64,000 nucleotides of DNA, taken from contig JALHOP010000007.1 of NCBI GenBank assembly GCA_022842935.1, positions 77,592-141,591 on the forward strand, written 5' to 3'. The position numbers and the translations under genes were made by a program. The DNA comes from Myxococcota bacterium (lineage in GTDB: Bacteria > Myxococcota > XYA12-FULL-58-9 > JALHOP01). Below, piece after piece: positions 5,581 to 29,862 of the stretch. Every line of letters starts with the position of its first letter. Position 1 is the stretch's first letter. The notes beneath the pieces were generated by a model. It made no database searches. It saw only the letters and a list, made by a program, of their open reading frames with translations, and was not told the origin of the DNA.

Positions 5581-5794
5581 GGGCTTCGTGGCTCGGGAAA
5601 ACCACGACAGTCGCAAGAATGTCACACATTGGTGCCCGGCGCACGTCGAGGTGGGCACGACCATCCAGAGGGCTATCGTCACTGGGGGGCGACGGCCGGG
5701 GCCGGGGATGACCCGAGCCGAGCGAGAGCGCCCCATCATGGCAGTGCCCCTCACCGCGTGGACCGCGAAGACGCACGCGTGTTACGCTTTGTCC

Positions 5795-6040
5795 ATGGTC
5801 GACAAGGCTCGCATCGTCAGTGCGCTCGTCGAGCTAGAGCTCGACCTGGTCGCCGCGTACCTGTTCGGCTCCGCCGCGCGGAATCAGCTCCGGAAGGGTA
5901 GTGACTTCGATCTCGGGGTCCTGACTGCGGGAGTGCCTCTTCTGCCCGTTCAGCGCTGGGAGCTTCAGGAGCAGCTAGCGGCGCAGCTCAATCGCAACAT
6001 CGACCTCATCAAGCAGCGCGGTTCTGTCTATGGTCGATGA
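5795..6040 (+). CDS. MNT-type nucleotidyltransferase antitoxin (partner of HepT)
   Basis: Minimal nucleotidyltransferase motif LFGSAARNQLRKGSDFDLGVL. Its 3' end overlaps the start of the HepT gene. Start chosen at the internal Met (MVDKAR); the ORF-track frame extends upstream and overlaps dnaK, which is implausible. An alternative start is about 57 nt upstream (MAVPL). Confidence 0.6.
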   Translation: MVDKARIVSALVELELDLVAAYLFGSAARNQLRKGSDFDLGVLTAGVPLLPVQRWELQEQLAAQLNRNIDLIKQRGSVYGR

Positions 6041-6455
6041 CGTCGTCCTCAACAAAGTCGCGAGCATCGAACGATGTCTGCAACGCGTGCGCGACGAGTA
6101 CGACGGCCGGCCAGAGAATCTCGACAACCAAACAAAGCAGGACGCGATCGTCTTGAATCTGCAGCGAGCGTGCGAAGCCTCGATCGACCTCGCGATGCAT
6201 CTGGTGAGCCGTTTGCGTCTCGGCGTCCCGCAGGAGAGGCGTGACGCATTCGAGCTCCTCGCAGGCGCTGGTCTGCTGCAGCGGTCACTAAGTGACGCTT
6301 TGAAGCAAATGGTCGGTTTTCGAAACGTCGCGGTGGACGACTATCAGAAGCTAAGCTTGCCCATCGTGAGGGCGATAGTGGAGCACCGGCTCGCTGACTT
6401 CGTCGATTTCTCGCGCGTGGCCATCGCGACGGCAGAGCGCACCGCATCCCAATAG
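6030..6455 (+). CDS. HepT-like (DUF86) toxin of a HepT/MNT pair
   Basis: DUF86/HepT-like sequence with a C-terminal Rx4HxY-type motif, here GFRNVAVDDYQKL (His replaced by Asp). An 11-nt overlap with the upstream MNT gene is typical toxin-antitoxin architecture. Confidence 0.65.
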   Translation: MVDDVVLNKVASIERCLQRVRDEYDGRPENLDNQTKQDAIVLNLQRACEASIDLAMHLVSRLRLGVPQERRDAFELLAGAGLLQRSLSDALKQMVGFRNVAVDDYQKLSLPIVRAIVEHRLADFVDFSRVAIATAERTASQ

Positions 6456-6500
6456 AGCGCTGAAAAGTTACGCCAAGGCGCTCGCGGTTCTCGAGGCGGA

Positions 6501-7928
6501 TCACTCTCCGCGCAGAGAAACGAGTGCTGCGGCCTGGCGAAGCGACATGCCCAGCTTATCGATCTGGGAAAGTAGCCGCATCGCGACGTCTTGGACGTTG
6601 CTCGGCTCGGTTGCGCCGCGCCGCTCGATACAGCTCAGCGCCGCCCGGGCGTGGAAGGCATAGATTCCGTTGCTGTCGAGCTCACCACGCATGCGCTTTG
6701 CGAGGACTCCAATCAGCACACGTTCGACCCCAGTGCGTGCGGGGTCGACCGCAAAAGCATAGCCACGCCGAACGTCGTCCTCAGGCACCTTCGCGCCGAT
6801 CTTCTTCGGAAGCCGAAACGCTTCTTCGAAATCGGCCAACGCGGCCATTGCCTGCGAGGCGCTCGAGCTCGGAACGTGTGCCACTTCGAACTCTGTCGGA
6901 TACGGGTCTGACAGGGGCGCGGCTTGGTCGATCGAAGCGCGCAAGCGCATAGCGATCTCGAACGTCACCATGTGTTCCCAGGGCTTGGTGTACTCGTTGC
7001 GTTGCCACTCCGGCCGCTGCGCTTCAATTTCGCGCTTCTCGCAGCTCTGGGTGAGCCCCTCGCCGTCAAACACTGCATTGCGAATGATCGGCGCAAGCTC
7101 TGCTTTGGCCTCGGGCGAGATTGCGTCGAAGCTCGCCGCGATAGCGCTTAGCCGCTCGGCACGAAGCACGTCGAAGCTGCCGGACATCGTCTCGCGAACG
7201 AGGGGAGCAAGCTCTGCTCTGGCCTCGAGCGAGAGTGCGTCGAAGCTCGTCGCGATAGCGCTGAACTTCCCGCCCAGAAGCGCGTCGAAGAAGTCTGCAC
7301 GCATCGCGATGTCGGGGTGGGTGACTGGGTTGATGTGATCGCCCGCAGCCACGAAGCCTTCGAGAAGTGCGCGGGTGCTGGCGTCAACCTTTCGTCGTGT
7401 GTGGTCGAGCCGTTGAAGGAGCTGCTTTGAGCGCCGGGCGAGAAGTACTACCACCTCTGGAGCCTCGACCCGTGCCTCGTCGGTCCCCACACGGTTGGTC
7501 CCTGGTGGGATGAGCTCTGCGAGGTTTGCGCGCGCCTCGTCGTTGAGGGTCTGCCCCTGCCGACGGTAGCTCAACTCCTCCCGGTAGCCCCAAATGTGGA
7601 ACGCCGCGTGACAGGCCGCGGCACCTGCCGCGCAGGCCTGCAACAGAGGTCCGCCCGCTCCCAGGAGGGGGACCGGGATGAGTCCCCACAGGATGAGCGC
7701 GAACATGCTAGGATCAGCTAGTTTCTCCACGAAATCGGCCGGTAAATCGCTCGGCTTCGGCGTCCGCACGAGGTGGTCCGTGTTACGCTCGAACGTCGTG
7801 ACGCTCTTTTTGACTCGTTGCTGGAGCTCGCTTCCCGAGGGGGCGCGCACGACCAGCTCTCCGCCAGTCGAGGGCAGAACGACGAATCGCTGGCTGACAA
7901 GTGTGGAAGCTGTCGTCGTGCTCGTCAT
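6501..7928 (-). CDS. hypothetical membrane protein with an internal duplicated segment
   Basis: Predicted transmembrane segment (MFALILWGLIPVPLLGAGGPLL). Two near-identical units of about 30 aa (AIATSFDALSLEARAELAPLVRE / AIAASFDAISPEAKAELAPIIRN). No recognisable family. Confidence 0.5.
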   Translation of the reverse strand: MTSTTTASTLVSQRFVVLPSTGGELVVRAPSGSELQQRVKKSVTTFERNTDHLVRTPKPSDLPADFVEKLADPSMFALILWGLIPVPLLGAGGPLLQACAAGAAACHAAFHIWGYREELSYRRQGQTLNDEARANLAELIPPGTNRVGTDEARVEAPEVVVLLARRSKQLLQRLDHTRRKVDASTRALLEGFVAAGDHINPVTHPDIAMRADFFDALLGGKFSAIATSFDALSLEARAELAPLVRETMSGSFDVLRAERLSAIAASFDAISPEAKAELAPIIRNAVFDGEGLTQSCEKREIEAQRPEWQRNEYTKPWEHMVTFEIAMRLRASIDQAAPLSDPYPTEFEVAHVPSSSASQAMAALADFEEAFRLPKKIGAKVPEDDVRRGYAFAVDPARTGVERVLIGVLAKRMRGELDSNGIYAFHARAALSCIERRGATEPSNVQDVAMRLLSQIDKLGMSLRQAAALVSLRGE

Positions 7929-8023
7929 GAATCACCTCTAGTTTCCAGCTTGAGCCAAAGCGTTTTTCGCATCGCGAACCCCAAAAAGGCCCCATCCCGG
8001 CGACCCGCGGCTGAATTGCTGCG

Positions 8024-9496
8024 CTATGCCGCCTTGAACGCGGCACGAAGGCGTTCGACAGCCTCCGCGAGCGTGCGACCGTGTTCGCTATCGCGGGCGC
8101 CACTCATCCGCGTGAGTACCTGCTCGAGCTTTGCGGGGTACTTGAAGTCGTCGAGGCTCTTTGCGATCGGCGCGGCGAGTGGTCCAGCGCGTAGGCTCCT
8201 CACGAGTAGTGCGAGCTCATCGCACAGTGTCGCGGCCTTCACCGCGTCGCCCGGATCGGTGAAGCGCCCATAGCCCGCGATCTTGCTGAGACCGTCCACG
8301 TAAGCACCGACGACCTCACGCGCCCCGTTGACCGCGGTCTCACGCGAGCGTGGCGTGTCGACGAACCCCTCGAACACGATGACGTCGAGGCCGTGATTGA
8401 GACGGTAGTCTTCGGCCTTGCTGACGCCCAGGCCGTTCGCGGCGATGACGTGCGGTAGACCCTTGGTGACGAGAATCTGCTCGACCGTCTCGGGTGCGCG
8501 GTCGCGGTGGTTGATGGTGAACTTGCGCTCGAACGGATAGCCTACCCGGTGACGCGGGAGCGTTGTATCGACGGCCGCGCTGCGCCGCATGTCACCAAGG
8601 TCGAGCTTTGCTGCAACGTTGGGCTTTACCGCGCGCAAAATGGCCAGCGCTTCATGCGCCACGTCCGCGATCGCGGCACGACAAACTGCCCCGCGTCCGG
8701 CAAAGTGACTTAGCAGGGCTTGATGCGATGCTTCGGGGGTCAACGCAGGCATGGCGTCTTGCCACTGATAGCCATCCCAGGACCTGACGGACACCGAATC
8801 GGTGACGCGAAGGAACGGCACCGGCGTTCCGAAGACTGACGCGGGGCGTTGGTTGTGCATCGCCTTTGCGGCGCCAACTAGGTCGACGAGCGATGCGACT
8901 TCTTTTTCTCCTACGATCGTCGAGAGGTCGATGAGGCTGCGTTCGGCGAGTGCGTTCACGAGCCCAAGGCCTGCCGCGATGTATTCGGCACGTGTGCTGC
9001 CCGCGTCGACCCCCCGTCGGGGATGCGACTCCGTCTCGAAAAGCTGCTCTGGCCAATCTTTGATGTTCCAAGCGAGGGAGCCGGTGAGCGCCTTGAAGAT
9101 CGAATCCCCAACCTGCTTGAGCCTGACTGCGGCATCGCAACCCGGCTGAAACCAACCGCGCAGCATGTCATGAACGGCGACTCGCGCTCGGTGAGCCTGA
9201 CCCGCTTCGCCCGTAAAGTCGCGTTTGATGTTGGCGAAATGATGCATGTTGCCGAGCACGCCCGCGACAACAACAGCACGCTGCATGGCCTCGGGCGACA
9301 ACGTCTTCGCCGGCCGCGGTGGTTGTTTGCACTCGACGCCGTCCGGCCCATGAGGCTGACGAAGGGATTGCATTTGCGGGCCGCTCGCTGTCAGCGAAGG
9401 GCCAAGGTCGATTAGCCTGAGAGTCAGCCAGGGTAGGTTGAGGGCGACTGCATTTGGGGCATTGTCGACGTTCATGGTGACAGTATCGGACGGCAC
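8024..9496 (-). CDS. hypothetical protein (490 aa, no signal peptide)
   Basis: Long ORF in the coding strand context of the ECF operon. No motif recognised. Confidence 0.45.
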   Translation of the reverse strand: MPSDTVTMNVDNAPNAVALNLPWLTLRLIDLGPSLTASGPQMQSLRQPHGPDGVECKQPPRPAKTLSPEAMQRAVVVAGVLGNMHHFANIKRDFTGEAGQAHRARVAVHDMLRGWFQPGCDAAVRLKQVGDSIFKALTGSLAWNIKDWPEQLFETESHPRRGVDAGSTRAEYIAAGLGLVNALAERSLIDLSTIVGEKEVASLVDLVGAAKAMHNQRPASVFGTPVPFLRVTDSVSVRSWDGYQWQDAMPALTPEASHQALLSHFAGRGAVCRAAIADVAHEALAILRAVKPNVAAKLDLGDMRRSAAVDTTLPRHRVGYPFERKFTINHRDRAPETVEQILVTKGLPHVIAANGLGVSKAEDYRLNHGLDVIVFEGFVDTPRSRETAVNGAREVVGAYVDGLSKIAGYGRFTDPGDAVKAATLCDELALLVRSLRAGPLAAPIAKSLDDFKYPAKLEQVLTRMSGARDSEHGRTLAEAVERLRAAFKAA

Positions 9497-9552
9497 CTAA
9501 GGCTAGTTCGCCCCAGAACACTGCCACCTCGTCATGGCCCCGACGGCGTGCG

Positions 9553-10047
9553 CTAGCGGCGGCGCTCGCGGTTCTCCTTCATGCGCTCGCGCACGCGCTG
9601 GCGTTGCTCCTCGCTTAGGTTGTCGCGCTTGTCGAGTCGCTCGAGCAGTCGCTGTCGGTCTTCGGGGGCCATGCGCGAGAGGTTTCGGTAGACTTCCCGC
9701 AGGCGCTCGCGGCGCTCGGGTGAATACGTCTTGAAGCGCTCGAACTGGTCGCGAACGCGGCGCTGGTCGTCGGCCGATAACCGCTTGAACGCACGGTAAC
9801 TATCGACGAGCGCAGCGCGTCGTTCGGGCGACAAAGCGCGGAACTTGGCGTAGCGCTCGCGCACTGCCTGCTTCTGCTCGGGCGTAAGCGTCTTGAAGCG
9901 CTCGAAAGCGGTCCGTACCTTCGCTTTTTCGTCTTCGGAAAGCTCGTTCCAGCGCTCCATGGGGGCGACTTCGCGCGGAGCGTCCTGGGCCACCGCGACG
10001 CGCGCGACGGCGAGAATGGCGAGCGTCACCAGGGTCGTGAGCTTCAT
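9553..10047 (-). CDS. periplasmic DUF3106-like repeat protein, third gene of the ECF sigma module
   Basis: Signal peptide, then four or five repeats of the pattern RxRFxxLSPEqRxxL (FERFKTLTPEQKQAV, YAKFRALSPERRAAL, FERFKTYSPERRERL). Its ATG overlaps the anti-sigma stop (ATGA). Confidence 0.6.
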   Translation of the reverse strand: MKLTTLVTLAILAVARVAVAQDAPREVAPMERWNELSEDEKAKVRTAFERFKTLTPEQKQAVRERYAKFRALSPERRAALVDSYRAFKRLSADDQRRVRDQFERFKTYSPERRERLREVYRNLSRMAPEDRQRLLERLDKRDNLSEEQRQRVRERMKENRERRR

Positions 10048-11197: not shown

Positions 11198-12007
11198 TCA
11201 CCGACGGGTTGCCGTCCTTCGGCGCAGCTCGCGCAAGCGCTCGTAGATGCGGCGGGCCTGGGGTGGGTCGATGTCGAGCGGGTTGTCGCGTCTGTTGCGA
11301 TATGCTTCGCGAAGCGCGTCGCGCACACCGTCCCGGGCGACCGGGCTTGCTCCGTCGCTTTCGCGTGCGCGTCGCCAGGCGTTGCGGAGCCGATCTAGCC
11401 CATCGCGCTCGAAGAGATCGCGCGGCTGCTGGACGCTGATGCGTCCCCGCAAGGCGTCGAAGGCGGCGCTGTCGAGCATGGCGCGCTCGATCCTGCTGCC
11501 AATCACCACAGCGCGTTCCGATGCCCCTACGAGTGCGCGCTCACCGCTCGCGCTCGCGACCTCGACGGCGCCGGCTTCAACGCTGATAGTGGTTTCGTCG
11601 CCGTCCACTTCGCTGAAGAACGACGTGCCGCGAACTCCAGCCACGGCGTTGACGGTCGTGACCTCGACCGTGTTGCCATCGAAGAGCGAGCTCACGCGGG
11701 CCCACAGACGGCCGGTGAGTAAGCGCAGCGAGGTGCTGCCCTCGCGAGCGGCTGGTTGCAGACGTAGCTCGGCGCGAGCACCCAACTCGATCACCGCTTG
11801 GTCATCGACGAGAAGGCGCGCTTGGCTGCCGTCACCGACGCGTATGAGATCGCCATCGCGGAGCGTGTCTCCCCGTACGAGCGAGATGCTCTCGCCATTC
11901 GCGCTGACGCGCGCGACCTCACCATGAGCCTCGACGACGCGAGCCGTGCTAGCACTCGCGAGTTGCGTCATGAACAGCACCGTTAGGGCGACGAGTGCAC
12001 GCATCAA
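11198..12007 (-). CDS. FecR-domain secreted protein
   Basis: Signal peptide (MMRALVALTVLFMTQLASAS). FecR-like core (GRLWARVSSLFDGNTVEVTTVNAVAGVRGTSFFSEV). Its start overlaps the upstream gene's stop. Confidence 0.65.
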   Translation of the reverse strand: MMRALVALTVLFMTQLASASTARVVEAHGEVARVSANGESISLVRGDTLRDGDLIRVGDGSQARLLVDDQAVIELGARAELRLQPAAREGSTSLRLLTGRLWARVSSLFDGNTVEVTTVNAVAGVRGTSFFSEVDGDETTISVEAGAVEVASASGERALVGASERAVVIGSRIERAMLDSAAFDALRGRISVQQPRDLFERDGLDRLRNAWRRARESDGASPVARDGVRDALREAYRNRRDNPLDIDPPQARRIYERLRELRRRTATRR

Positions 12008-15127: not shown

Positions 15128-16231
15128 TCAGATTCGTTCCCAGTACTTGCTCAGAAGCTGTGATGCATAGTCGACGAGCGCAACCAGGCGACCGTAGTCC
15201 ATGCGACGAGGCCCTAGAATACTCACGGTAGCCTGCTCACCGGAAGGACCAGCGATCGATCGACCGACGAACGACACCTCGAGCATGTCGCTCATGTCGA
15301 GCTCGGATGCGAGCACGACCTTGGCACCAGGGTCTTCTCCAGCCGCTTTAGCGGTGGCCGGAACTTCGATGAGCTTGTCGAGCAGACCCAAGAGCGCCGC
15401 CTTGTCCTCGATGGCGTGAACGAGGCTGCGGAGCTTGGCGACATCGGCAAACTCGGGCTGCTCGATAAGCTGCGCGGTCCCTTCCACGACGAGCGACGGC
15501 TCGGGTGTGGGGATGGCCTGCTGACCGATGGCGTAGGCGCGTTGCTTGAGCAGGTCGAGCTCGCTCTGCGCCTCGGTGAGCTCGCGCGCGATGAGCGTGC
15601 GCACCTCGTCGAGCGAGCGCCCGGCCAAGCGCTCGTTGAGGAAGTTCTGGATACGCATGAGCTCGTCCGGCGTCAGGTCGAAGTCGACCTCGACGAGCTT
15701 TTGCTGGATGAGACCAGCCAGCGACACGAAGAAGGCGATGAAGCGACCTGGGTTCACGCGGACCAACCCGATCTCGCGGAAACGCCCGCCGATGAAGCTT
15801 GGCATCACGATGAGAGCGACTTGGCCCGAGAGCCCAGCCAGGCTCTGACCCAAGGCGGTTGGTAGGGTCGAGGGCGCGGCGACAGCGGCGACCTCGTCGA
15901 GGCGCGTGCGATCCCAGGGCCGCAACTTCGGGCTCATGAGGTCATCGAGATAGAGTCGCAGACCTTTTTCGGTCGGGATACGCCCGGCACTCGTGTGCGG
16001 CTGCGCGAGGTAACCTCCCGCCTCGAGCTCGGCCATGACGTTGCGGATGGTCGCGGGGGACCACGACATCGCATGCCGCTCGCGGGCATTCCTCGCCGTC
16101 GACAGCAAATCGAGCTGCCTGGCGACCACCGCAGAGCTTACGGGCTGCGCATCATCGATGTAGGCCTCGATGACCACCCGCAACACCGCGCGTTTGCGGA
16201 CATCCAGCTCCATGTCGACACACGACTCCAA
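15128..16231 (-). CDS. hrcA: heat-inducible transcriptional repressor HrcA
   Basis: N-terminal winged HTH (VLRVVIEAYIDDAQPVSSAVVARQL) and an HrcA C-terminal domain. Start may be at the internal MELD, 6 codons into the ORF. Confidence 0.85.
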   Translation of the reverse strand: MESCVDMELDVRKRAVLRVVIEAYIDDAQPVSSAVVARQLDLLSTARNARERHAMSWSPATIRNVMAELEAGGYLAQPHTSAGRIPTEKGLRLYLDDLMSPKLRPWDRTRLDEVAAVAAPSTLPTALGQSLAGLSGQVALIVMPSFIGGRFREIGLVRVNPGRFIAFFVSLAGLIQQKLVEVDFDLTPDELMRIQNFLNERLAGRSLDEVRTLIARELTEAQSELDLLKQRAYAIGQQAIPTPEPSLVVEGTAQLIEQPEFADVAKLRSLVHAIEDKAALLGLLDKLIEVPATAKAAGEDPGAKVVLASELDMSDMLEVSFVGRSIAGPSGEQATVSILGPRRMDYGRLVALVDYASQLLSKYWERI

Positions 16232-16452
16232 AGGGACAATTAAGGAGGCGCTTACGAGGTGTCAAGCAGCCTGACGCGGTGCGATACGGGGATCGTCGTT
16301 CGTGCGTCGACGACGCGTGTTGCCTAGCCACATTGCCCATGACTGCTTTAATTAGACAGTTGTAGGCGCGTCTGCCGGGAATTCACTTGGCCGCCGCGAA
16401 AAGCCTCTGCTACGCTCAACGTTGTAGGGCCTGGAAGTTCAAGGAGCTTGGC

Positions 16453-17706
16453 GTGCCGCGCAAAGATTTTCAGGGTGGACAGCTCACCTGCTCGTTTTGC
16501 GGCAAAAGTCAGCGTGAAGTCCGCAAGCTGATCGCTGGCCCGACCGTCTACATCTGCGACGAGTGCATCCGACTGTGCACTGAGATCATCGAAGAAGAGA
16601 GTGAACGCGAGAACGGCGAACGCCGGCCGCAGAAGCTCCCGACGCCCCAAGAAATCGCCGAGCACCTCGACCAATACGTGGTCGGCCAGACGCGCGCGAA
16701 GAAGATCCTCGCCGTCGCGGTCTACAATCACTACAAGCGCATCGAGTCGAAGGCGAAGGGCAACGACGACGGCATCGAGCTGTCGAAGTCCAATGTCTTG
16801 ATGATCGGTCCTACCGGCACCGGCAAGACGCTGCTCGCGCAAACCTTGGCGCGTATGCTCGACGTGCCGTTCACCATCGCGGACGCGACGACGCTGACCG
16901 AAGCTGGCTACGTCGGCGAAGACGTCGAGAACATCATCGCAAACCTCCTGGTTGCCGCCGACAACGATGTCGAGCGCGCACAGAAGGGCATCGTCTACAT
17001 CGACGAGATCGACAAGATCGCTCGCAAGGGCGAGTCGCCGTCGATGACGCGCGACGTGTCAGGTGAGGGTGTGCAGCAGGCGCTCCTCAAGATCATCGAA
17101 GGCACCCGTGCCAACGTCGCGCCGCGCGGTTCGAAGAAGTACGGGCAGTCCGAGATGATCCCGGTCGACACGGCGAACATCTTGTTCATCTGCGGCGGCA
17201 GCTTCACCGGCATCGAACAAGTCGTACAACGCCGTATTGGTCGGCGTGGGTTGGGCTTCGGCGCCGAGATCACCCGCAAGGAAGACCGTCGTCTCGGCGA
17301 AATTCTCCGCGAGGTCGAGCCGGAAGATCTGACGAAGTTCGGTCTCATCCCCGAGTTCGTGGGCCGCTTGCCGGTCATCGCCACGCTCGACGATCTCGAC
17401 GAGGCTGACCTCAAGCGCATCCTCACCGAGCCCAAAAACGCGCTCGTGCGTCAGTACCAGAAGCTCTTCGCGATGGAGCGCGTGGAGCTGGTGTTCGACG
17501 ATCCCGCGATCCACGCGGTCGCCAAAGAGGCGATCCGCTCGAACAGCGGCGCCCGCGGCCTGCGCACCATTCTCGAGAGCGCCATGCTCGACATCATGTA
17601 CGAGGTGCCGTTCCTCGATGGCATCAAGCGCTGCAAGATCACGGAAGACGTGGTCAACAAGAAGGGCGAGCCTGAGCTCGCGTTCGAAGCCAAGAAGTCT
17701 GCCTAG
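16453..17706 (+). CDS. clpX: ATP-dependent Clp protease ATP-binding subunit ClpX
   Basis: Zinc-binding CSFCGK...CDEC motif and Walker A GPTGTGKT. Start taken at an in-frame GTG preceded by AAGGAG with a 6-nt spacer. This gives the same N-terminal spacing before the C4 zinc motif as characterised ClpX proteins. The ORF-track start lies 22 codons upstream. Confidence 0.9.
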
Positions 17707-17707
17707 A

Positions 17708-17726
17708 CCGGCGAGGGGCCGTTTTT
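17708..17726 (+). terminator. weak intrinsic-terminator-like hairpin plus T5 immediately after the clpX stop
   Basis: CCGGCGAGGGGCCG forms a 4-bp GC stem with a GAGGG loop and is followed by TTTTT. It lies between convergent clpX and the 17801..19420 gene. Confidence 0.3.
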
Positions 17727-17732
17727 CGTCGT

Positions 17733-17770
17733 CGCGTTGCGCTCCTCGGTTTGGGGGACGCGACCCCCAA
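17733..17770. repeat. solitary copy of the 38-bp hairpin core (CGCGTTGCGCTCCTCGGTTTGGGGGACGCGACCCCCAA) also found in the tandem array at 19.74-19.93 kb
   Basis: Exact 38/38 identity to the three array cores. Contains an 8-bp perfect stem, TTTGGGGG / CCCCCAAA, around an ACGCGA loop. Confidence 0.7.
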
Positions 17771-17800
17771 GGGCTAGACTGGCGCCTCTTCTTCGCTCTT

Positions 17801-19420
17801 TCAACCGCGGTGCAGAGGGACGGGCTCGCCGTCGAGTCGAACTTCCCAGCTATCTTCGAGGGCGTACTGCGCGCGGACGCGCGCAAGCGAAACGTCGCGA
17901 CCAAGCACCGCGCTCAGCGCTGTCGCGAGCGACCGCACGTAGATATTGATCTCGGCGGTCGGTATGTCGGTCACGAAGGAGAGCGAGCTCACCCTGTCGC
18001 CTCTACACACCCCGTCGACGTGCGACAGGAAACCGACGAGATGCCGCGCCACGTCGGTCGCTTCGCCGAAGCGCCCAGGGAAACCGTCGACGAACGCCTC
18101 GACGATGGCGTCGTAAGCCGGCGTCGCTAAGTCGTGGTCCGCGCCGCGTAGGCCTGCTGCGATATCGAGGTCACCGAGTAAAGCGCGTCGAGGCTGGGGT
18201 AACCACTCCACACCCACTTGCTGAGCCGCTCTCTGAGCCCTGGCGATCGCTTCAGCTCGGTCGCGCACACCCTGAACGGAGACCCAGGCGTCGAGCAAGC
18301 TCGTGAAGCGCTCTGGCGTGAGGTTCCCGCGCTCGGTGTGCAGCACGAGACGCTCGGGGATCGACGAAAACGGTCTCTTCTCGACGTCGTGGACGACGGC
18401 TTCGCAGTCCTTGGCGAGGGCTTGCTGGATGGCCTCGCGCGCGCTGTCTCCCAGCGACCGCGTCTCAGCCCCAAGCGATGGAGTGAAGAGGGCGTTCACC
18501 TTGTCCTCGAGCTCGTTGAGGCAGCGACGCTCGCCCTTGTAAGCCAAGATCTGGGCGCCCCGCCCCAGAGACGCGACGATGGACGCGTCACTCGCCCCAC
18601 TCTGTCGCAACACGGCCAGCAACTCGACGGAGCCCGCGATGCCGTGGTCGCGATTGGCCGAGTTCGTCCAGTCAATCCGCGCCGCGACCGAGTCAGCTGC
18701 GGCACGACGCTCGACGCCGGTCACCTCGAGGTCGTAGCCGTCGAACTGGCTCATGCTCGTCCGGTAGTCCCGAACGGGGTCGTCACTCGCGGAAGGCGCG
18801 GTCGAGAGGGCTTGCAGGTAGGCGACCTTCGCCGCCTGGGCGAAGTCGTCGACACCAATGACGCCGTGGGCGAGCAGGTGCTCGAGCACCTCGAGGTTTT
18901 GCGGCAGTTTCGCCAGTCCTTCCCGCACCGCCTCCGCGACCTCGATCGTCGTCGGTGCGTAGTAGGGGTGCGTGCGCCGCACCATGGCATTGGCATCTTC
19001 GAGCTTTCCGCTCCTGAGCGTCTCGAGGTGAGCGTCGCGCAGCGCTTCGCGAAGCTGGGTGGTGTCGAGCTTGCCGGCGCCGAGCGCCTTGGTGATTGCA
19101 GCGTTGTCGGCGTAGCGGGGCTCGGTGCCGAGCGCGCGTCTCCAGCCCACACGCATCGCCGCGTCGACGCCGGCCATGATGGCATCGCGTGAACGCCCCT
19201 TGAGCGCGAGAGTAGCTCCGAGCTCCACCTCGGCGATGCGCTCGAGCACAACGCGGAGGGCACGGGCTGTCGGTTTGCCGTCAACAAGCGGGATGTCACC
19301 TTGTTGAGCGATGACCGCCAGGGCGCTGGCGCCGAGCTTGGGCTCCCGCGCTTCAGCCGCGGAGCCGCCGAGCTCGAAGTAACGATCAACGAGGCTGGTC
19401 AGCGTCGTACGGGAGATCAT
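17801..19420 (-). CDS. hypothetical protein (539 aa)
   Basis: Long ORF with no signal peptide and no recognised motif. Its 3' end has a truncated paralogue at 19604-19740. Confidence 0.5.
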   Translation of the reverse strand: MISRTTLTSLVDRYFELGGSAAEAREPKLGASALAVIAQQGDIPLVDGKPTARALRVVLERIAEVELGATLALKGRSRDAIMAGVDAAMRVGWRRALGTEPRYADNAAITKALGAGKLDTTQLREALRDAHLETLRSGKLEDANAMVRRTHPYYAPTTIEVAEAVREGLAKLPQNLEVLEHLLAHGVIGVDDFAQAAKVAYLQALSTAPSASDDPVRDYRTSMSQFDGYDLEVTGVERRAAADSVAARIDWTNSANRDHGIAGSVELLAVLRQSGASDASIVASLGRGAQILAYKGERRCLNELEDKVNALFTPSLGAETRSLGDSAREAIQQALAKDCEAVVHDVEKRPFSSIPERLVLHTERGNLTPERFTSLLDAWVSVQGVRDRAEAIARAQRAAQQVGVEWLPQPRRALLGDLDIAAGLRGADHDLATPAYDAIVEAFVDGFPGRFGEATDVARHLVGFLSHVDGVCRGDRVSSLSFVTDIPTAEINIYVRSLATALSAVLGRDVSLARVRAQYALEDSWEVRLDGEPVPLHRG

Positions 19421-19736
19421 GGAGCCTCGAGCGGGAGACGAAAGAAAACCGCAGGTTCACCCGTTCTGTTTCGAGTATCGGCTCGCCGGGGGGGACGTTG
19501 TCAGGCGCCAACCTGACACCGTTTCAGATCCTGGACGCATAGGATGGGAAATTCGGGCCAGGCAACGAGAGCGTAAAGGCGCGCTCTTCGCGAGCTTGAA
19601 GAGCTAGACCGGCGCGTCTTTTTCGTTGTTGCCCTCGGCGACCTCGAGGACGGTCTCGTCGCCCTTCACATCGACCCGCACCTGGCCGCTGCCCTGGAGG
19701 AGCTTGCCGAAGAGGATCTCGTCGGCGAGCGGCCGG

Positions 19737-19930
19737 CGCCTTGGCATCGCGTTGCGCTCCTCGGTTTGGGGGACGCGACCCCCAAAAGAGCCTCGCATTT
19801 TTCGCGACCGCCTTGGCATCGCGTTGCGCTCCTCGGTTTGGGGGACGCGACCCCCAAAAGAGCCTCGCATTTTGCGCGACCGCCCTGGCATCGCGTTGCG
19901 CTCCTCGGTTTGGGGGACGCGACCCCCAAA
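19737..19930. repeat. tandem direct repeat of three 72-bp units, each with a 38-bp hairpin core
   Basis: Cores at 19747-19784, 19819-19856 and 19891-19928 are identical. The linkers are near-identical (AAAGAGCCTCGCATTTT[T/G]CGCGACCGCCTTGGCAT). The ORF-track ORFs crossing this region merely translate the repeat. Confidence 0.75.
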
Positions 19931-20560
19931 CCTCCGGTGCCCGCTCAGCCAAGGCTGTGCACTGCTCGGTCACCCCGGGGTGGTGAGCAATTTCAGCCAG
20001 TTCGGATACCTCGCCGTGTACGACGTGGCATGGCTTCGCCAATTGTTGCTCGTGAGTCCCATTCGCCTGTTGTCACCGAGCCGACGGCCGCGCAGCCTGC
20101 GCCACCAGAGGCCGCCGAGAAGCTCACCACCGACGACAAGTTGTGCGTCCTTGGTGGCGTCATGGGCCTGCTTTTCCTTTCGGCGGGTGGGGTCAACGAA
20201 GGTGCCCACATGCTCCAGCAGTCGTGCAGCGGTCGGGCTGCCTCTGGGCTTACTCCGGGGCAAGGTGGTGTCGCCGTGCGTGGTAGGCGCTGAGCGTCGC
20301 GTTCGACACAACGGACGAAGTAGTGGGTGAGCTCCCCGTTGCGACCGTAGAATTGGATCATGCGAGGCACCCCGCGTTGTCCGCGACCGCGTGGTACGAG
20401 CCCACCCCGCTCCAGGGTCGCAGCCGCGTTTGTCGAAAGACGCATCGGGAGAACACGTGGAGCCGGGCGGTGGGGGGCTTGGGTGGCCGGCTGCGGGGGT
20501 TTCCCGGGCGTCGGTGAAAAGCTACCTCGGGTTTGCAAGATCGACGCAAACAGCGCTTAA

Positions 20561-21991
20561 TTGCGTTGTATGCCCGCTGTGGCCGCCGTCGATGTTGGCT
20601 CATCCGCGATTCGCCTGTCCGTCGCGGTGGTGAGCCCCACGGGTTCCCTTGCTGGCAGTGACTTTCACCGCTACGGACTGCGTCTCGGTAGCGACGTCTT
20701 CAGCCGTGGTGTTATCGCGGACAACACCTCTCGCTTGCTTGTCGACGTCTTTGGCGACATCGCCGGCAAGCTCCGCGAGCACGACGTTTCGAGTTATCGC
20801 GCCGTCGCGACCAGCGCGATGCGCGACGCCGGCAACGGGCGGGACATCGCGCGGGCCATCCGTGACGCCACCGGCGTCCGCCTCGAGATCATAAGCGGCC
20901 GTGAAGAAGCGCGGCTCGCCCGGCAGGCGCTCACCCGTTCACTTGGCTCATCGGCGACCGGCGCTCTGCTCGTCGACATCGGTGGCGGTAGCCTCGAGAT
21001 CGAGACCTCACGCCGGGCTGCGCGCTCCTTGCCGTTCGGCACGGTTCGGCTAGTCGAGCGCTATCCTGAGCTGCGTGGGCCACTCCGCTTGAAGGCGCTA
21101 CGCGAGGTGCAGCGCGCCATCGCTCGTGACCTCGCGCGGCGGGTCAAGCGGCGCCGCTACGCAGTCGCCATCGCAACCGGTGGTAACCTCGACGTTTTGG
21201 CTCGTCACGCGCCGTTTGCTAGTGGCTTCTGGCCAGCCATCGACCTGTCGCGTCTGCAGCAGCTCACCGAGAGCCTGGCGGCACTGACGGTCGACGAACG
21301 CCGCGAGGCGATGGAGCTTCGCGCCGACCGCGCCGATGTCATCCTTCCAGCCGCGCTCCTGCTGCTCGCCTTGAAGCGCGTGTTCGGCCTGCAGGTCGTG
21401 GTCGTTCCCGGGACCGGGTTACGCGAATCCATCCTGCACGACCTCGTGGCGACAGAGTCAGTGCGTTCGTCCGCTAAAGCGGTTGCTAGGCGTTTCGGGA
21501 TCGATACCAAGCGAGCGGCGCATCGCGCGAGCCTTGCGCGTGGCCTATTCGAAGCGCTGTTGCCGGTGCATCGCCTATGGGCGCCAGCGCTGCGCATCCT
21601 CGAGACCGCGGCGTACCTCTACGACCTCGGCGGGCTGGTCGACGGGGAAGACGCGGCTCGCCACACTGCCTATCTGGTGCGCCACGCCAGCGGCCTGGCT
21701 CTCGACAACCGCTGCCGCGACGTCGTCGGTTACGCTTTAGCGGTCGCGTCTGATGGGCCACTCTTCGAGGCGACCGACGACCTGCGTCCCGATGACTTGT
21801 CGTCTGGCCGTATCCTGGGAGGTATCCTCGCCCTCGCGCACTGCCTCGCTGGTGCCACAAACCGGCGTCAAGTCCGCGTCGACCTCTTGCGCTCGCCGAT
21901 CGTCGTCGACGTGGGCCTCGACCGGCCCATCGATGCGCGGAAGGTCCTGCTCCTCACCCGGGTCCTCGGGCAGCGGGTAAGCGTTTTGTGA
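20561..21991 (+). CDS. Ppx/GppA family exopolyphosphatase / pppGpp phosphohydrolase
   Basis: N-terminal actin-like ATPase motif AAVDVGSSAIRLSV. C-terminal HD-like region (AAYLYDLGGLV...AYLVRHASGL). Confidence 0.75.
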   Translation: MRCMPAVAAVDVGSSAIRLSVAVVSPTGSLAGSDFHRYGLRLGSDVFSRGVIADNTSRLLVDVFGDIAGKLREHDVSSYRAVATSAMRDAGNGRDIARAIRDATGVRLEIISGREEARLARQALTRSLGSSATGALLVDIGGGSLEIETSRRAARSLPFGTVRLVERYPELRGPLRLKALREVQRAIARDLARRVKRRRYAVAIATGGNLDVLARHAPFASGFWPAIDLSRLQQLTESLAALTVDERREAMELRADRADVILPAALLLLALKRVFGLQVVVVPGTGLRESILHDLVATESVRSSAKAVARRFGIDTKRAAHRASLARGLFEALLPVHRLWAPALRILETAAYLYDLGGLVDGEDAARHTAYLVRHASGLALDNRCRDVVGYALAVASDGPLFEATDDLRPDDLSSGRILGGILALAHCLAGATNRRQVRVDLLRSPIVVDVGLDRPIDARKVLLLTRVLGQRVSVL

Positions 21992-25799: not shown

Positions 25800-26138
25800 G
25801 ACGGGGGGCGCGGCGAGCAAGCAGAGTGCCACGATGTCATGGTTGCTAACTGGTTGAATTTACGTTGTCCTTGTGTGGTTGTTATGACCACAGTGTGGGT
25901 TTGTATCCACTTTGTGCCCACTATTGCCCTCACTTTTACCCCACACGGATGACTTCGAGCTCGGAAGCCTCGCGGTCGAAGCCGGCGCGCGCCTGGACGG
26001 GGTGCCCTTCCGCATCGGTTGGTCGACTGGCGATGATGAACATGCCACATGTGGATCGACGGCGTGCCGATGCCGGAGCTTGCCGATGGGTCCGAGCTGC
26101 CGAGCGTCGAAGGAGAAGCACGAGTTACCGGGCGCAAC

Positions 26139-27170
26139 ATGAACAAAGCCGTCTCGCATGACTTGAAGCTTGGGCGATGGCGACTTCATGCGCTCTGCCT
26201 TACCTGCCTCGTCGCGTTCAACGGTTGCGCTACCGAGTCAGCCCGCATCAACCCGCACGACGTCGCCGCGGCACTGCTCGGCGAGATGAACCCGGCCCCG
26301 ACCATCGACGACCTGCGTGACGCTCGGCAGCGCGCAAACCCTTCGCGCCGGCTGCTCCTCGAGCGGGTGCTTGCCGTTCTCGAGACAGCGCCCGCCGAGC
26401 GCACTGCCACGGGTGCTAGCTTCGATCGCTTCTTGCAGGTGCTCCGCGATCTCATCGACTCCGCGCAAGCGGACGTCGAGGCGCGCCGCGCATATGTTTC
26501 CGCCTTCGTGCAAGCGTCGATTTCACCGGCGCCGCCGCTCAGCGACCCAGCCGTGCTCGCTGACGAAGCCCTGGCGCACGCGCGACGCCTGGTTGCCGCT
26601 TTTCCCGGGGACGGCAAGAGTTATCGGGTGCTCGCCGAGGCGCTAGGCAACGCACAAGAAGACCAGGTCGCTGTGGGCGTGGCGTATAAGCAATGCGTGG
26701 CGCTCGCCCCGGCTGCGGGGTCGTGCGTGGTTCGGCTCGATGCCATCCGCGAGCGATTGCGGGCCCCGCATTGTGGCGGCTCCCAGGTCGCGAGGGCTCT
26801 GGTCTTTCATGCGGCGACCGATGACGGCCAGCTCAGCGAGGAGCCGCAGCTCACACTCGAGGCGACGCCAGTGCTCACCGCAGTTGATATCGCGACGATC
26901 GCGGTCGACCCGACGTCGGACCGGGCGCTCGACATCAGCATCACGCCAGCCGCGGCAAAGACGTTCGGTTTGACGACGGCGCGCCTTGCAGCCTCGCGTT
27001 CCTGGCTCGTCATGCGACTCGGCGAGGTGTCGGTCATCGCCGCACGCGTCACGGGTCCCATGCCCGACGGCGTGATGAGACTCCACACGGCGCGGGAGCC
27101 GGCGATCGACGTTCTACGCAGGCTGTGCGTGACACTCGAGCGGCGCGCCTTGCCACCTGAGCTGCAATAG
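26139..27170 (+). CDS. hypothetical lipoprotein
   Basis: Signal peptide with lipobox (VAFNGCATES) from the Met at MNKAV. Helical, TPR-like composition. Confidence 0.5.
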   Translation: MNKAVSHDLKLGRWRLHALCLTCLVAFNGCATESARINPHDVAAALLGEMNPAPTIDDLRDARQRANPSRRLLLERVLAVLETAPAERTATGASFDRFLQVLRDLIDSAQADVEARRAYVSAFVQASISPAPPLSDPAVLADEALAHARRLVAAFPGDGKSYRVLAEALGNAQEDQVAVGVAYKQCVALAPAAGSCVVRLDAIRERLRAPHCGGSQVARALVFHAATDDGQLSEEPQLTLEATPVLTAVDIATIAVDPTSDRALDISITPAAAKTFGLTTARLAASRSWLVMRLGEVSVIAARVTGPMPDGVMRLHTAREPAIDVLRRLCVTLERRALPPELQ

Positions 27171-27236
27171 CGGATCGCAGTGGGTGACTGCCCTGTGCCC
27201 TGAGCTCGGGGTGGAGGAAAGCGCGGGCAACCGCGT

Positions 27237-29423
27237 TCAGTGACCCTGTCCGCAACGGCTGCAGACGTGGGCGCGTCCTTCGAGACTCATGTCGCCGTCG
27301 CTCGCCGCGACCAGACGACCATTGCGGTCGAAGACCAGCGAGCCGGCGACAGCAGCCAAAATTTCGTTCGGCTTGCCAAAGCGGACGCGGGTGAAGCCAT
27401 AGCCGTCGGTGATGCGCTCGAGCTCGACCACGCCTTCGGCGCTCGTCCAGCCACCGACGCGCGCGGCAAGCGGGCCCTGACCACGCCGAGCAGAATCGAC
27501 GTCGCCGATGGTTGCGACGGGGAGGTCGCGGGTGATGCGCGGAGTGGTGTCAGCGGCGAGGAGGCCCCGTTCCCGCAGGATGCTCTCGAAGCGCGCAACG
27601 GACTCGGGCGACTCGGTTTCGCGCGCGCCGCGCAATAGAGCAGCACCGATATCGTGCAGGGAGCCGCCGTTCTCGGGCATGAACAGCATCGCGGCGTGTA
27701 ACGTGCTCGCGCTGACATCACGCACCCGTTGCACACTGGCGACCGGGTCGGTGGCGCCACGCGCCGCGTCGGACGCCTCGCGAGCGAAGTGCTCGTAGAG
27801 AGCACCCGAGATGATCCGTGAAACATAGTGGTGCTCACCGGCTCGGCTGCCGTCTGGCACTGGCGGGTTCCCGGATGCCGCCGGATCGAGCCCCGCGATG
27901 TCGCTGACGCGAAGCACGCTCGCGGCGTCACGCAGCGCTTGGTTGCCGTCGTCGGCTGGGTCGCGCGTGCTCGAAGCGATGGTGCGCGCGAGTTGTTCGG
28001 CGATACGAGAGACAGAGTTGCTACGGGTGAGATCGCCTTCCGTCTCGGCGAGGGCCGCACGAATCACCTCGGGAGAGTCGAACGCGGTGAGAAGCGCGAC
28101 CGAGTCGCCATAGGCCTCGTGCATGGCGCGCCCTGGCGCCGAGGAGAACATCGCTGGCATCAGCGTCGCGAGCGCCGCGTGACCCGCCTCATGGCTGCCT
28201 ACGAAGCGATCTTGAGCGAGTCGAACGAGCTGCCCGGTGAGTGGCCGGATGCGCGCGATCTCGAACCCCGCCCGCATGAGGTCGCCGCCATAGCGCGCGC
28301 GCGCGCTGAGGGTCAGAAATCTGTCGATGGGTAGAGGCTCTTCACCCGAGGGCGGCCTGGCAAAACCCCCAAAGAGCCTGCCCGCGAGGCCTCCGTTGGT
28401 TTGGCGCGGGTCAGTGATCGTCTCTCGCGCCCGCTCCGCGGTGAGGAGGCGCTCGACCTCGGCGACGTCGTCACGGCGGGCGGCGTCGACGATGGCGCGC
28501 AGCGCGGCAGCTTGCGCCCGCACTTCGCGCAAGCCGGCGGGATTGAGCTCGGGGCGACTTTCGGCGGAGAGGCGCGACTCTGTCTCGGAGACGGCACTCT
28601 CGCGCTCAGCGAGGGCGTGCTCGAGGAACGCGACGCTCGAGCCGTCGAGCGGCACCAGCCGCCCGTCCCGGACGTTACCCAGCGAGCCGAGTTGCACTTC
28701 ACGTGTGCCGCCAACGAAAAACGCGTTCAGCTCCACGCTGCTCGAGCCGACAAACGCGTTGGGGCGCACCGTGAGCTGACCGCCATCGCCCCAAGGGATG
28801 GGGCGCCGTGCCGCGCGCTCGGCCAAGGTGATGGTCTGGTTCGCGGCATAAAACGCGGTGGTCTGAGCCGTGTCCACCTCTGGGGCGTCGAAGTGGCCCT
28901 CGGCGTTGGCGGTCACGGGTGCGACCTGGCTCGGCTCGGTGATGACGTTGGTGGTGAGCAGGCCGATGAGCGGCAGCTGCGCAAGACCCGGGATGTTCGA
29001 CTCGGCCGTCTTGATGTCGCCATCGACGGCGATGCGCACACGCGGACCTTCGAGGAGCGAGGGCGCGTTACGCGTGCAATAAAAGGCGCTGCCGGGGAGG
29101 CTCGCAACCGTGGCTGGCCGACTTCCGTCGTCTTGGTGGACCCGGAGGTTTACCCCCGGGGTGGTGCAGATCGGCGGCCGCAAGGCGCCCGCTGAGCCTC
29201 GGGTGATTGGGGGAACACCGAACGGGAGCCCCGGTAGATTCACCTCGGGTCTCTGAACCTCGCGCTCGGGGTTGCGCACGTCGGTGGGGGCTGCGCCTTC
29301 GCCTGCACCTGCAAGGGCGGCACGGGAGGGGATACGGGTCGGCGCGATTGGAGTCACTTGCCTCGCATCCTCTCTGGTGCGCGATACACGCCACCTAGTT
29401 TCGTTCAGGATGTTTATCGGCAT
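27237..29423 (-). CDS. M4 (thermolysin-like) zinc metalloprotease homologue
   Basis: HEAGH (HExxH) motif followed about 20 residues later by HEAYGDS, which matches the thermolysin xEAxSD third zinc-ligand motif. No obvious N-terminal signal peptide. C-terminus ends CSRCGQGH. Start uncertain; the only Met is at 29423. Confidence 0.55.
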   Translation of the reverse strand: MPINILNETRWRVSRTREDARQVTPIAPTRIPSRAALAGAGEGAAPTDVRNPEREVQRPEVNLPGLPFGVPPITRGSAGALRPPICTTPGVNLRVHQDDGSRPATVASLPGSAFYCTRNAPSLLEGPRVRIAVDGDIKTAESNIPGLAQLPLIGLLTTNVITEPSQVAPVTANAEGHFDAPEVDTAQTTAFYAANQTITLAERAARRPIPWGDGGQLTVRPNAFVGSSSVELNAFFVGGTREVQLGSLGNVRDGRLVPLDGSSVAFLEHALAERESAVSETESRLSAESRPELNPAGLREVRAQAAALRAIVDAARRDDVAEVERLLTAERARETITDPRQTNGGLAGRLFGGFARPPSGEEPLPIDRFLTLSARARYGGDLMRAGFEIARIRPLTGQLVRLAQDRFVGSHEAGHAALATLMPAMFSSAPGRAMHEAYGDSVALLTAFDSPEVIRAALAETEGDLTRSNSVSRIAEQLARTIASSTRDPADDGNQALRDAASVLRVSDIAGLDPAASGNPPVPDGSRAGEHHYVSRIISGALYEHFAREASDAARGATDPVASVQRVRDVSASTLHAAMLFMPENGGSLHDIGAALLRGARETESPESVARFESILRERGLLAADTTPRITRDLPVATIGDVDSARRGQGPLAARVGGWTSAEGVVELERITDGYGFTRVRFGKPNEILAAVAGSLVFDRNGRLVAASDGDMSLEGRAHVCSRCGQGH

Positions 29424-29862
29424 GCTGACGCCGATGGTGCGTGAAAGTGCAAAGGGCTATAGTCGCCAGTCTGTGGCGTTCGTTCGCGTAGCATCACGTG
29501 GCAGCAGCATGTGGCCGACGCTCCGGCACGGCGACACCTTGCTCGTCGACAACATGGCGCCGCCCGCCGTTGGCGACATCGTCGTGCTGCGAGCGGGTGA
29601 GGGGAGCTTTATCGCCCACCGTCTGGTGGCCATGGCAAACGGCCTGGTGCGTTGCACGAATGCCCGCGGCGAGCCCGACCCCTGGGTCAGTCGAGACCAT
29701 GTGTTCGGGCGGGTCGCCTGTGTCGAGCGCGATGGGCGCTTGCTCGCGGTTGGGCGCGAACCGCCAAATGTGCGTATCCTTTGGGCGTTGCGTTCGAGCT
29801 ATGGTCTAGCGCGACGCATCGCGCATCGCGTGCGCAGGAGCCTTCGTGATCGCCAAGCGTAA
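29410..29862 (+). CDS. S26-family signal peptidase of the ER/archaeal (SipW-like, Ser/His) type
   Basis: Catalytic Ser box GSSMWPTLRHGDTLLVD, then GDIVVLR. A His (IAHRL) sits where bacterial type-I SPases carry the general-base Lys, as in Sec11/SipW-type enzymes. Start approximate; Mets are available at 29410, 29422 and 29434. Confidence 0.6.
   Translation: MFIGMLTPMVRESAKGYSRQSVAFVRVASRGSSMWPTLRHGDTLLVDNMAPPAVGDIVVLRAGEGSFIAHRLVAMANGLVRCTNARGEPDPWVSRDHVFGRVACVERDGRLLAVGREPPNVRILWALRSSYGLARRIAHRVRRSLRDRQA

Follow-up and report, generated by a model that had tools for sequence, protein, structure and literature searches.

How does a perfect GC-rich hairpin come to be present four times in a short stretch of DNA downstream of clpX? 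The locus belongs to an uncultured Myxococcota bacterium (GenBank assembly GCA_022842935.1, contig JALHOP010000007.1) and lies in positions 77,592 to 141,591 of that contig, a stretch of 64,000 nucleotides (nt) that is referred to here as the window and whose own numbering is used throughout. Three copies of the hairpin form a tandem array, and a fourth lies between clpX and a convergent orphan gene of 539 amino acids (aa). An earlier note on this DNA took the copies for a family akin to repetitive extragenic palindromic (REP) elements or miniature inverted-repeat transposable elements (MITEs), caught in expansion. The evidence points, by somewhat more than an even balance, to a humbler origin: the repeats appear to be the debris of local duplication in a lineage-specific insertion, a decayed array of one unit and not a dispersed family.

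The 38-nt core, CGCGTTGCGCTCCTCGGTTTGGGGGACGCGACCCCCAA, has four exact copies on the plus strand, starting at 17733, 19748, 19820 and 19892, and none was seen in 100 shuffles. The last three, spaced by 72 bp, had been described before. When the units are aligned, the block that is identical across the copies extends to 39 nt, TCGCGTTGCGCTCCTCGGTTTGGGGGACGCGACCCCCAA. Tandem Repeats Finder gives the array a period of 72, 2.7 copies and 98% matches. The linkers of 34 nt had rightly been called nearly identical, since the two full linkers match at 33/34 nt, and the third unit differs at another base. Within the unit alignment the array units vary at two positions (column 5, T/C; column 66, T/G). 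Across the 64-kb window there is no other repeat family of comparable quality.

Each core carries a hairpin with the stem TTGGGGG/CCCCCAA, a perfect 7 bp in all four copies. The 8-bp stem reported earlier is that of the array units, which have an 8-6-8 layout; the last unit reaches 10 bp. The stem is flanked by CTCGG and AAGAG in the array and by CTCGG and GGGCTAG in the copy after clpX (locus A), where the CTAG lies 3 nt from the stem; the array units have no CTAG. Read on the minus strand, each core consists of the hairpin TTGGGGGTCGCGTCCCCCAA, ACC, a Shine-Dalgarno-like GAGGAG, 9 nt and an ATG, which is replaced by ACG in locus A. None of the six frames of the array shows a codon-position GC signal. 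The array is placed between 5' ends that diverge, the copy in locus A between 3' ends that converge.

The outcome named beforehand as speaking against a repeat family, a purely local duplication, is the one observed within the data searched. No copy of the core exists outside 17733-19929 in the window, none was found in viral contigs, and a core pattern with 24 specified bases gave no match in one GTDB genome per species for 185,579 species. The 21-nt hairpin was found in one metagenome contig only, and this is the same locus in an independent assembly of this organism, matching window positions 16641-19552 at 99.97% identity and ending before the array. All four copies lie in one 2.27-kb insertion. 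Thus the proposed family in expansion is not borne out, and a high-copy REP-type family is unlikely.

The independent assembly also bears on the suspicion that the array arose by misassembly, the contig being metagenome-assembled. The source contig (335,811 bp) is known only from NCBI, the independent contig stops at 19552, short of the array, and a 95-aa open reading frame (ORF) that runs through the array has no record elsewhere. However, the units carry their own substitutions and are therefore distinct copies, which would not be expected of a simple assembler loop; a collapsed or looped repeat does not produce two unit-specific differences. The array is also flanked by unique sequence, and locus A and the orphan gene are confirmed by the independent assembly. 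An artefact is, on this evidence, highly improbable.

The duplication is not confined to the hairpin. The motif CTAGACYGGCG has exactly three occurrences, at 17703, 17774 and 19604, and a tail module is present in three copies of graded similarity. Sequence common to the clpX stop region and 19604, CTAGACCGGCG...TTTTTCGT, aligns with a score of 24 that is met by 3/1000 shuffles; the recurrence at 19604 of the motif that follows clpX had been seen before, and the copy at 17774 is the third. The CTAG at 17703 is the clpX stop on one strand and the stop of a tail on the other, and a short tail copy, CTAGACCGGCG...TTTTTCGTCGT, occupies the space between the clpX stop and core copy 1 (3/1000 shuffles). 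Sequence to the left of the CTAG at 19604 was considered as a copy of the clpX 3' end, an alignment that is not significant (305/1000 shuffles).

The end of the orphan gene, about 66 nt up to the CTAG at 17774, aligns as DNA with the end of a 47-codon minus-strand ORF at 19604 with a score of 36, which is reached by 0/500 shuffles (maximum 28). The protein comparison is marginal. If its TGA is read through, the 539-aa ORF ends in LEDSWEVRLDGEPVPLHRG, the stop, KSEEEAPV and a second stop, and the fragment ends in LQGSGQVRVDVKGDETVLEVAEGNNEKDAPV and a stop (13/1000 shuffles); BLASTP of the 539-aa C-terminus against the relic peptide gives E=15. Hence the resemblance between the two C-termini that had been claimed stands at the level of DNA, is marginal in protein and fails by BLASTP. 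Homology between the relic and the orphan gene is restricted to the last ~22-30 codons plus the stop (CTAG) and 3' untranslated region (UTR). The tails are ~75% identical and the cores 100% identical, which calls for recent amplification or gene conversion of the core. The exact cores and the tail alignments together uphold the earlier statement that a 3' gene fragment and the sequence following clpX were duplicated and the core amplified.

From what gene does the tail derive? The fragment at 19604 is probably not simply a paralogue of the orphan gene, as had been thought, since its body matches the C-terminus of ClpA and only the tail is shared. In the 47-codon ORF the GC content at positions 1/2/3 of the codons is 0.75/0.35/0.92, a strong sign of coding sequence. 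Its body, RRPLADEILFGKLLQGSGQVRVDV, matches positions 713-750 of 758 of the NCBIfam ClpA profile NF008263 (E 0.002-0.004, 15-16 bits); the match is reproduced with three query variants, and its bit score is far under the whole-protein cut-off, as expected of a fragment. A PDB search with the same ORF finds residues 713-738 of Escherichia coli ClpA, KKPLANELLFGSLVDG-GQVTV, at E about 1, and there is no Pfam match. The profile alignment starts at RRPLADE, just past the ATGCCAAGG junction, and runs to within a few residues of the stop, a register which implies that the C-terminus and the stop of the fragment are the native ones of a gene of ClpA type. The ORF is best taken as the C-terminal end of a ClpA-type ATPase gene, a weak assignment that is consistent in position. 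Two further ideas were discarded: that the core extends the ClpA frame, with FGGR as the sensor-2 GAR motif (the profile alignment begins only at RRPLADE), and that PDB matches of the 47-aa peptide to designed 'Pizza' proteins have meaning (they are repeat-summed noise).

Because 72 nt is 24 codons, the array stays in frame and gives rise to the 95-aa ORF (P0122). Its sole match among 1.84 billion representative proteins has the NCBI source contig as its only source, and an exact look-up in other assemblies returned no record. The N-terminal half of this ORF is probably non-coding, the array being without a coding GC signature.

The 539-aa protein has no homologue but itself among 5.8 billion proteins. 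It has no match in Pfam, NCBIfam or PADLOC, and none in plasmids, phages or viral contigs. A single-sequence AlphaFold model is all-helical and of low confidence (predicted local distance difference test score, pLDDT, 53); Foldseek returned only non-significant helical-repeat matches for it and no PDB fold match. The last ~10 codons of the gene and its 3' UTR are, as judged from sequence, borrowed from the ClpA-type tail. The TGA of the gene sits 9 codons before the CTAG stop that is here regarded as ancestral.

Table. Features of the locus between clpX and ppx, in window coordinates
Feature	Coordinates	Strand	Description
clpX	16453..17706	+	417 aa from conserved ATG; stop TAG within CTAG 17703-17706
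Lineage-specific 2.27-kb segment	17707..19977		All four cores lie here, as do the orphan gene and ClpA-type relic
Tail A1, CTAG + ACCGGCGAGGGGCCGTTTTTCGTCGT	17703..17732	-	Reads ...TTKNGPSPV, stop; stop overlaps clpX stop; aligns to 19604-19636
Core copy 1	17733..17770	+	Exact match; hairpin 17751-17770; between convergent clpX and 539-aa gene
Tail A2, CTAGACTGGCG	17774..17839	-	3' UTR and last ~12 codons of 539-aa gene; homologous to end of ClpA-type fragment
Orphan 539-aa gene	17801..19420	-	Gene-like codon composition, GC1/2/3 0.72/0.49/0.79
Perfect 7-bp hairpin GCTCTTC-GCGAGCTT-GAAGAGC	19583..19604		Adjoins CTAG at 19604 (hairpin scan)
47-codon ORF, MPRRRPLADEILFGKLLQGSGQVRVDVKGDETVLEVAEGNNEKDAPV, stop	19604..19747	-	Read as 3' relic of a ClpA-type gene, joined to the ATG of the core
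95-aa ORF	19604..19891	-	N-terminal 48 aa are two in-frame array units
Tandem array, 2.7 x 72 bp	19737..19930	+	Cores 19748-19785, 19820-19857, 19892-19929; Tandem Repeats Finder, exact matches
Shine-Dalgarno-like GAGGAG (CTCCTC on +)	19757..19762	-	9 nt 5' of ATG 19747-19745; in every core copy
Conserved small ORF, 87 aa, hydrophobic core	20030..20293	+	First conserved feature right of array
ppx/gppA	20570..21991	+	Pfam Ppx-GppA; start at conserved ATG, N-terminus aligned with relatives

The surroundings of the repeats are conserved. The clpX gene is recognised by the Pfam domains AAA_2, zf-C4_ClpX and ClpB_D2-small and by homologues of 417 aa, and a blastn alignment with the relative L088 begins at 16453. 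The gene order hrcA, clpX, ppx, prkA is kept in four relatives (L085-L088; ClpX 85-86% identical) and in another at 92%. In L085-L088 and P0004 only 2-63 nt separate clpX from ppx or the next gene, and among metagenome-assembled genomes of Myxococcota relatives a small conserved ORF and/or ppx follows 2-150 nt past clpX. Two closer relatives with 80-86% nucleotide identity across the region, L089 (GCA_964484195.1) and L090, have clpX, a short spacer, a 96-aa ORF and ppx. The spacer of L090 is 65 nt and aligns to window positions ~19978-20029, so that the sequence from 17707 to ~19977 is specific to the lineage of the window. Comparison of this insertion by tblastx with the loci of relatives and with the rest of the window gave composition-driven noise only.

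The small ORF right of the array is itself conserved in these relatives (52-57% identity with L089 11408-11698 and L090 11320-11610). Its 87-96 aa include an invariant hydrophobic core, C..GG..GLL.LSAGGVNE...M.Q.SC.GR. It matches no family and is absent from the relatives with 85-86% ClpX identity. Part of the array (linker and left arm of the core, 19764-19830) shows weak similarity to the small ORF of L090 at codons 7-22 (11330-11400; CCCAAAGAGCCCCG...CGCGACC...GCATC), with about 21/2000 shuffles (p about 0.01). This similarity is probably due to chance, being absent from the window's own small ORF and, past an 11-mer, from that of L089.

The spot 3' of clpX is occupied differently in other relatives. 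In one with 93% ClpX identity (JGI sample 3300059473, 2363-bp contig) clpX faces a convergent gene whose length is 231 aa or more; the two share 4 nt at the clpX stop, in the CTAG stop/stop arrangement that the window also has. In L089 two tandem 50-nt units, GTCCCGCCACTTGAGGCGGGAC, directly follow the clpX stop. Each has a perfect 8-6-8 hairpin, GTCCCGCC-ACTTGA-GGCGGGAC, with a stem unrelated to that of the window, and opens with 10 nt that form the reverse complement of the 3' end of clpX. These differing contents and the tandem pair of L089 show the spot to be a variable, duplication-prone ‘hot spot’. Two other details of L089 may be recorded. At 11242-11349 a perfect 10-bp hairpin, GAAGTCCGCC TAG GGCGGACTTC, has the clpX stop in its loop, and the second unit begins with GGCAGACTTC; this is the clpX end in reverse complement, in the form that it has in the window (GAAGTCTGCC) and not in L089.

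Such a parallel hairpin is what lineage-specific REP families would produce, and it is one ground for regarding the 39-nt block as a tiny mobile palindrome, REP-like or moved in trans by a Y1/HUH transposase, that inserted repeatedly near gene ends and formed a tandem array like that of a bacterial interspersed mosaic element (BIME). The hairpins of L089 and the window share the loop frame ACNNGA and a layout of tail, hairpin, 3 nt and CTAG or CTAA, in tandem, and the CTAG in locus A lies close to the stem. The ends of the block are also sharp and identical in varied flanks. However, no copy exists outside the single insertion within the 64 kb, species genomes have no match and metagenomes have none save the same locus. 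In addition the linkers are duplicated with the block, which argues for duplication and not independent insertion. Mobility of this kind is therefore unlikely. An extended version would join the 39-nt block and the 8-6-8 unit of L089 as lineage-specific families of hairpin elements that home to the clpX stop/terminator region (in association with YTAG), multiply in tandem and mediate the acquisition of foreign genes, for example the 539-aa orphan. This can be given little credence; if true, an uncultured Myxococcota clade would possess a REP-like or recombination-site system that serves to capture cargo.

Another possibility is that the cores are attL/attR-like repeats left by integration of circular DNA, by a tyrosine recombinase or in Campbell fashion, at the 8-6-8 palindrome past clpX. 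The cargo would then be the 2.1 kb that separates the first core from the last, and the extra units would stem from repeated integration or excision. Core sites of tyrosine recombinases consist of two arms around a short centre, and by analogy the two 8-bp arms around a 6-bp centre could be such a site. Identical direct repeats do flank a lineage-specific segment with an orphan gene, and the contents of the spot do differ among close relatives. However, there is no integrase or recombinase gene in or beside the insertion, and the flanking hrcA, grpE, clpX, ppx and prkA are syntenic with relatives. The duplication runs past the core into the diverged tail, and the 34-nt linkers are not explained as cargo. 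An integration origin is thus very unlikely.

The hairpin could in theory have been kept by selection, as an RNA or operator element. It might be a terminator without a U-tract, or a 3' stabiliser, for clpX and the orphan gene; a leader with three in-frame starts whose ribosome-binding site (RBS) is occluded by hairpins; or a palindromic site for a dimeric regulator. The folding check that had been suggested agrees in part, since a stable, perfect hairpin is present in all copies and dominates the predicted folds, and an outer stem GCUCUU/GAGGAGC is predicted to cover the RBS in the array context. The cores are invariant and the tails diverged, and a hairpin scan indicates that GC-rich hairpins right past stop codons are common in the lineage. 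Against this, the units do not fold much more stably than shuffles (z -2.2 to 0), and a scan of 16000-21000 on both strands with Rfam 15 found no family at E up to 1. No terminator was called at the core and no U-tract follows the hairpin on either strand (AAAGAG, AACCTC or AGGGCT on the plus strand, AAACCG on the minus strand). The elements are also missing from all relatives, and no single role fits both a copy at convergent 3' ends and an array at divergent 5' ends. Selection for such a role is unlikely. A dedicated function for the array is improbable; the most that the hairpin may do is act on RNA, as a 3' stem-loop of the orphan gene or as a leader that occludes the RBS.

A local origin would accommodate the repeats, tails and relic in one scheme. 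The founding unit, on the minus strand, would have consisted of the GC-rich stem-loop, the GAGGAG RBS, an ATG start, the closing codons of a gene of ClpA type and a CTAG that contains the stop. It could have arisen when a ClpA-type gene convergent with clpX lost almost its whole body in frame, for which the geometry of the relative with 93% ClpX identity is suggestive. The remainder, a leader, ATG and 44 C-terminal codons (19604-19747), would form a unit of ~190 nt. Unequal recombination or replication slippage, each of which the perfect hairpin would favour, may then have multiplied this unit in tandem. Further loss of tail in some copies would have produced the two 72-bp units and, at the clpX stop, the tail of 26 nt, and one copy would now bear the orphan gene, still ending in the shared tail.

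Several points weigh against this scheme. The edges of the 39-nt block are sharp and identical in three right-hand and two left-hand contexts, and look more like the insertion of a discrete element than a regional duplication. The sharp edges and the unrelated parallel hairpins of L089 are the features that local duplication explains least well. The non-integral number of 2.7 copies demands an extra step. The ClpA assignment depends on that one E value range against a single profile library; an exhaustive HMMER search of the 1.84 billion representative proteins found no significant match to the 47-codon peptide but itself, and a word search found zero homologues. For both a 23-nt mini-tail and the hairpin at 19583-19604, the proposed relation to the full unit is statistically non-significant; that hairpin may be a degenerate relative of the outer stem of the core, but its alignment with the core unit falls short of significance (298/2000 shuffles). 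Finally, of 9 window proteins tested, only 2-3 occur in the matching metagenome sample, which contains about a quarter to a third of the genes of this genome. This makes the argument from absence in metagenomes soft, and a low-copy dispersed family, with members beyond the 64 kb searched, may exist.

If local duplication is indeed the origin, the locus is an ordinary case, in a lineage that is unusual and sparsely sampled, of a variable intergenic spot that gathers gene fragments and short tandem duplications. It would also carry a warning for annotation, as the 95-aa ORF, and possibly the 47-aa ORF, would not be real genes and the 539-aa orphan would have a borrowed tail. The hot spot 3' of clpX would be a feature of an uncultured Myxococcota clade in which the contents of the spot differ in each close relative. 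Were the core instead dispersed or active in recombination, it would be a new type of small mobile element for the phylum.

Other features of the window touch the repeats less directly. The hrcA-grpE genes (15128-16231) adjoin clpX, and the CIRCE operator (controlling inverted repeat of chaperone expression; TTAGCACTC-N9-GAGTGCTAA) is absent from the 64 kb at up to 3 mismatches. The ORF at 6501-7928 contains a 97-nt direct repeat (7080-7176 and 7194-7290; 82% identity, 114-nt spacing), presumably an internal protein repeat. At 5583-9553 and 25933-29479 the counterpart of the window is missing or rearranged in L089 and L090; these blocks are further variable segments, and the region is otherwise collinear.

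Among known systems, a CRISPR array is excluded, as the earlier note held, by linkers that are identical save for one base, and there are only 2.7 units. MITEs have terminal inverted repeats and a target-site duplication; here the 67-nt stretch bounded by the CTAGs at 17703 and 17774 ends in ACCGGCGAGGGG and ...GACCCCCAAGGG, which are not inverted repeats, and CTAG flanks one copy only. Neither flank contains a transposase-like gene within about 3 kb; the neighbours there are hrcA, grpE, clpX, ppx and prkA. The likeness to attL/attR pairs or integron attC sites is that identical direct repeats with a palindromic core bracket the orphan gene; the differences are the lack of a nearby integrase and the extra 72-bp units without cargo. 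The attC core motif is GTTRRRY, and the core has one 6/7 match to it (GTTGCGC) with, by eye, no complementary partner across the palindrome.

The I-shaped terminators proposed for high-GC bacteria resemble locus A, where a perfect GC-rich stem-loop without a U-run lies a few nt past the orphan-gene stop. The array copies differ from these in lying upstream of both neighbouring transcription units and not at a 3' end, and the core carries a Shine-Dalgarno sequence and a start codon on the minus strand that a terminator does not need.

REPs are imperfect palindromes of 20-40 bp located after coding regions, many of them as inverted pairs, and one of their ends bears an unpaired tag, GTAG or CGTC (Di Nocera et al. 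2013, PMC3733652). The window core shares with them its size (39-nt block, ~40 nt), a perfect, GC-rich stem-loop with an unpaired arm (PMC3733652), a position at gene ends including a convergent pair, and a tandem arrangement with short linkers as in BIME arrays. Copy 1 lies between 3' ends as a REP might; the array copies lie 5' of both neighbours. The core differs in having no GTAG or CGTC abutting the stem or within the conserved block, and, since the CTAG of locus A is missing from the array units, no other tag in that block. Its copies are all direct, with none of the inverted pairs that many REPs form (PMC3733652), and the sequences searched gave no evidence of dispersal or high copy number. 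Linkers and neighbouring gene fragments have been co-duplicated with it, and all copies lie within one strain-specific insertion.

Local segmental duplication with pseudogene remnants is the closest comparison. The locus departs from it in the contrast between identical cores and diverged tails and in the non-integral copy number. It agrees with it in the confinement of all copies to 2.2 kb, in units with internal deletions, in the co-duplication of a gene 3' end with its stop, in graded divergence and in absence from close relatives. Moreover, the relative L089 has a tandem duplication of its own at the same spot.

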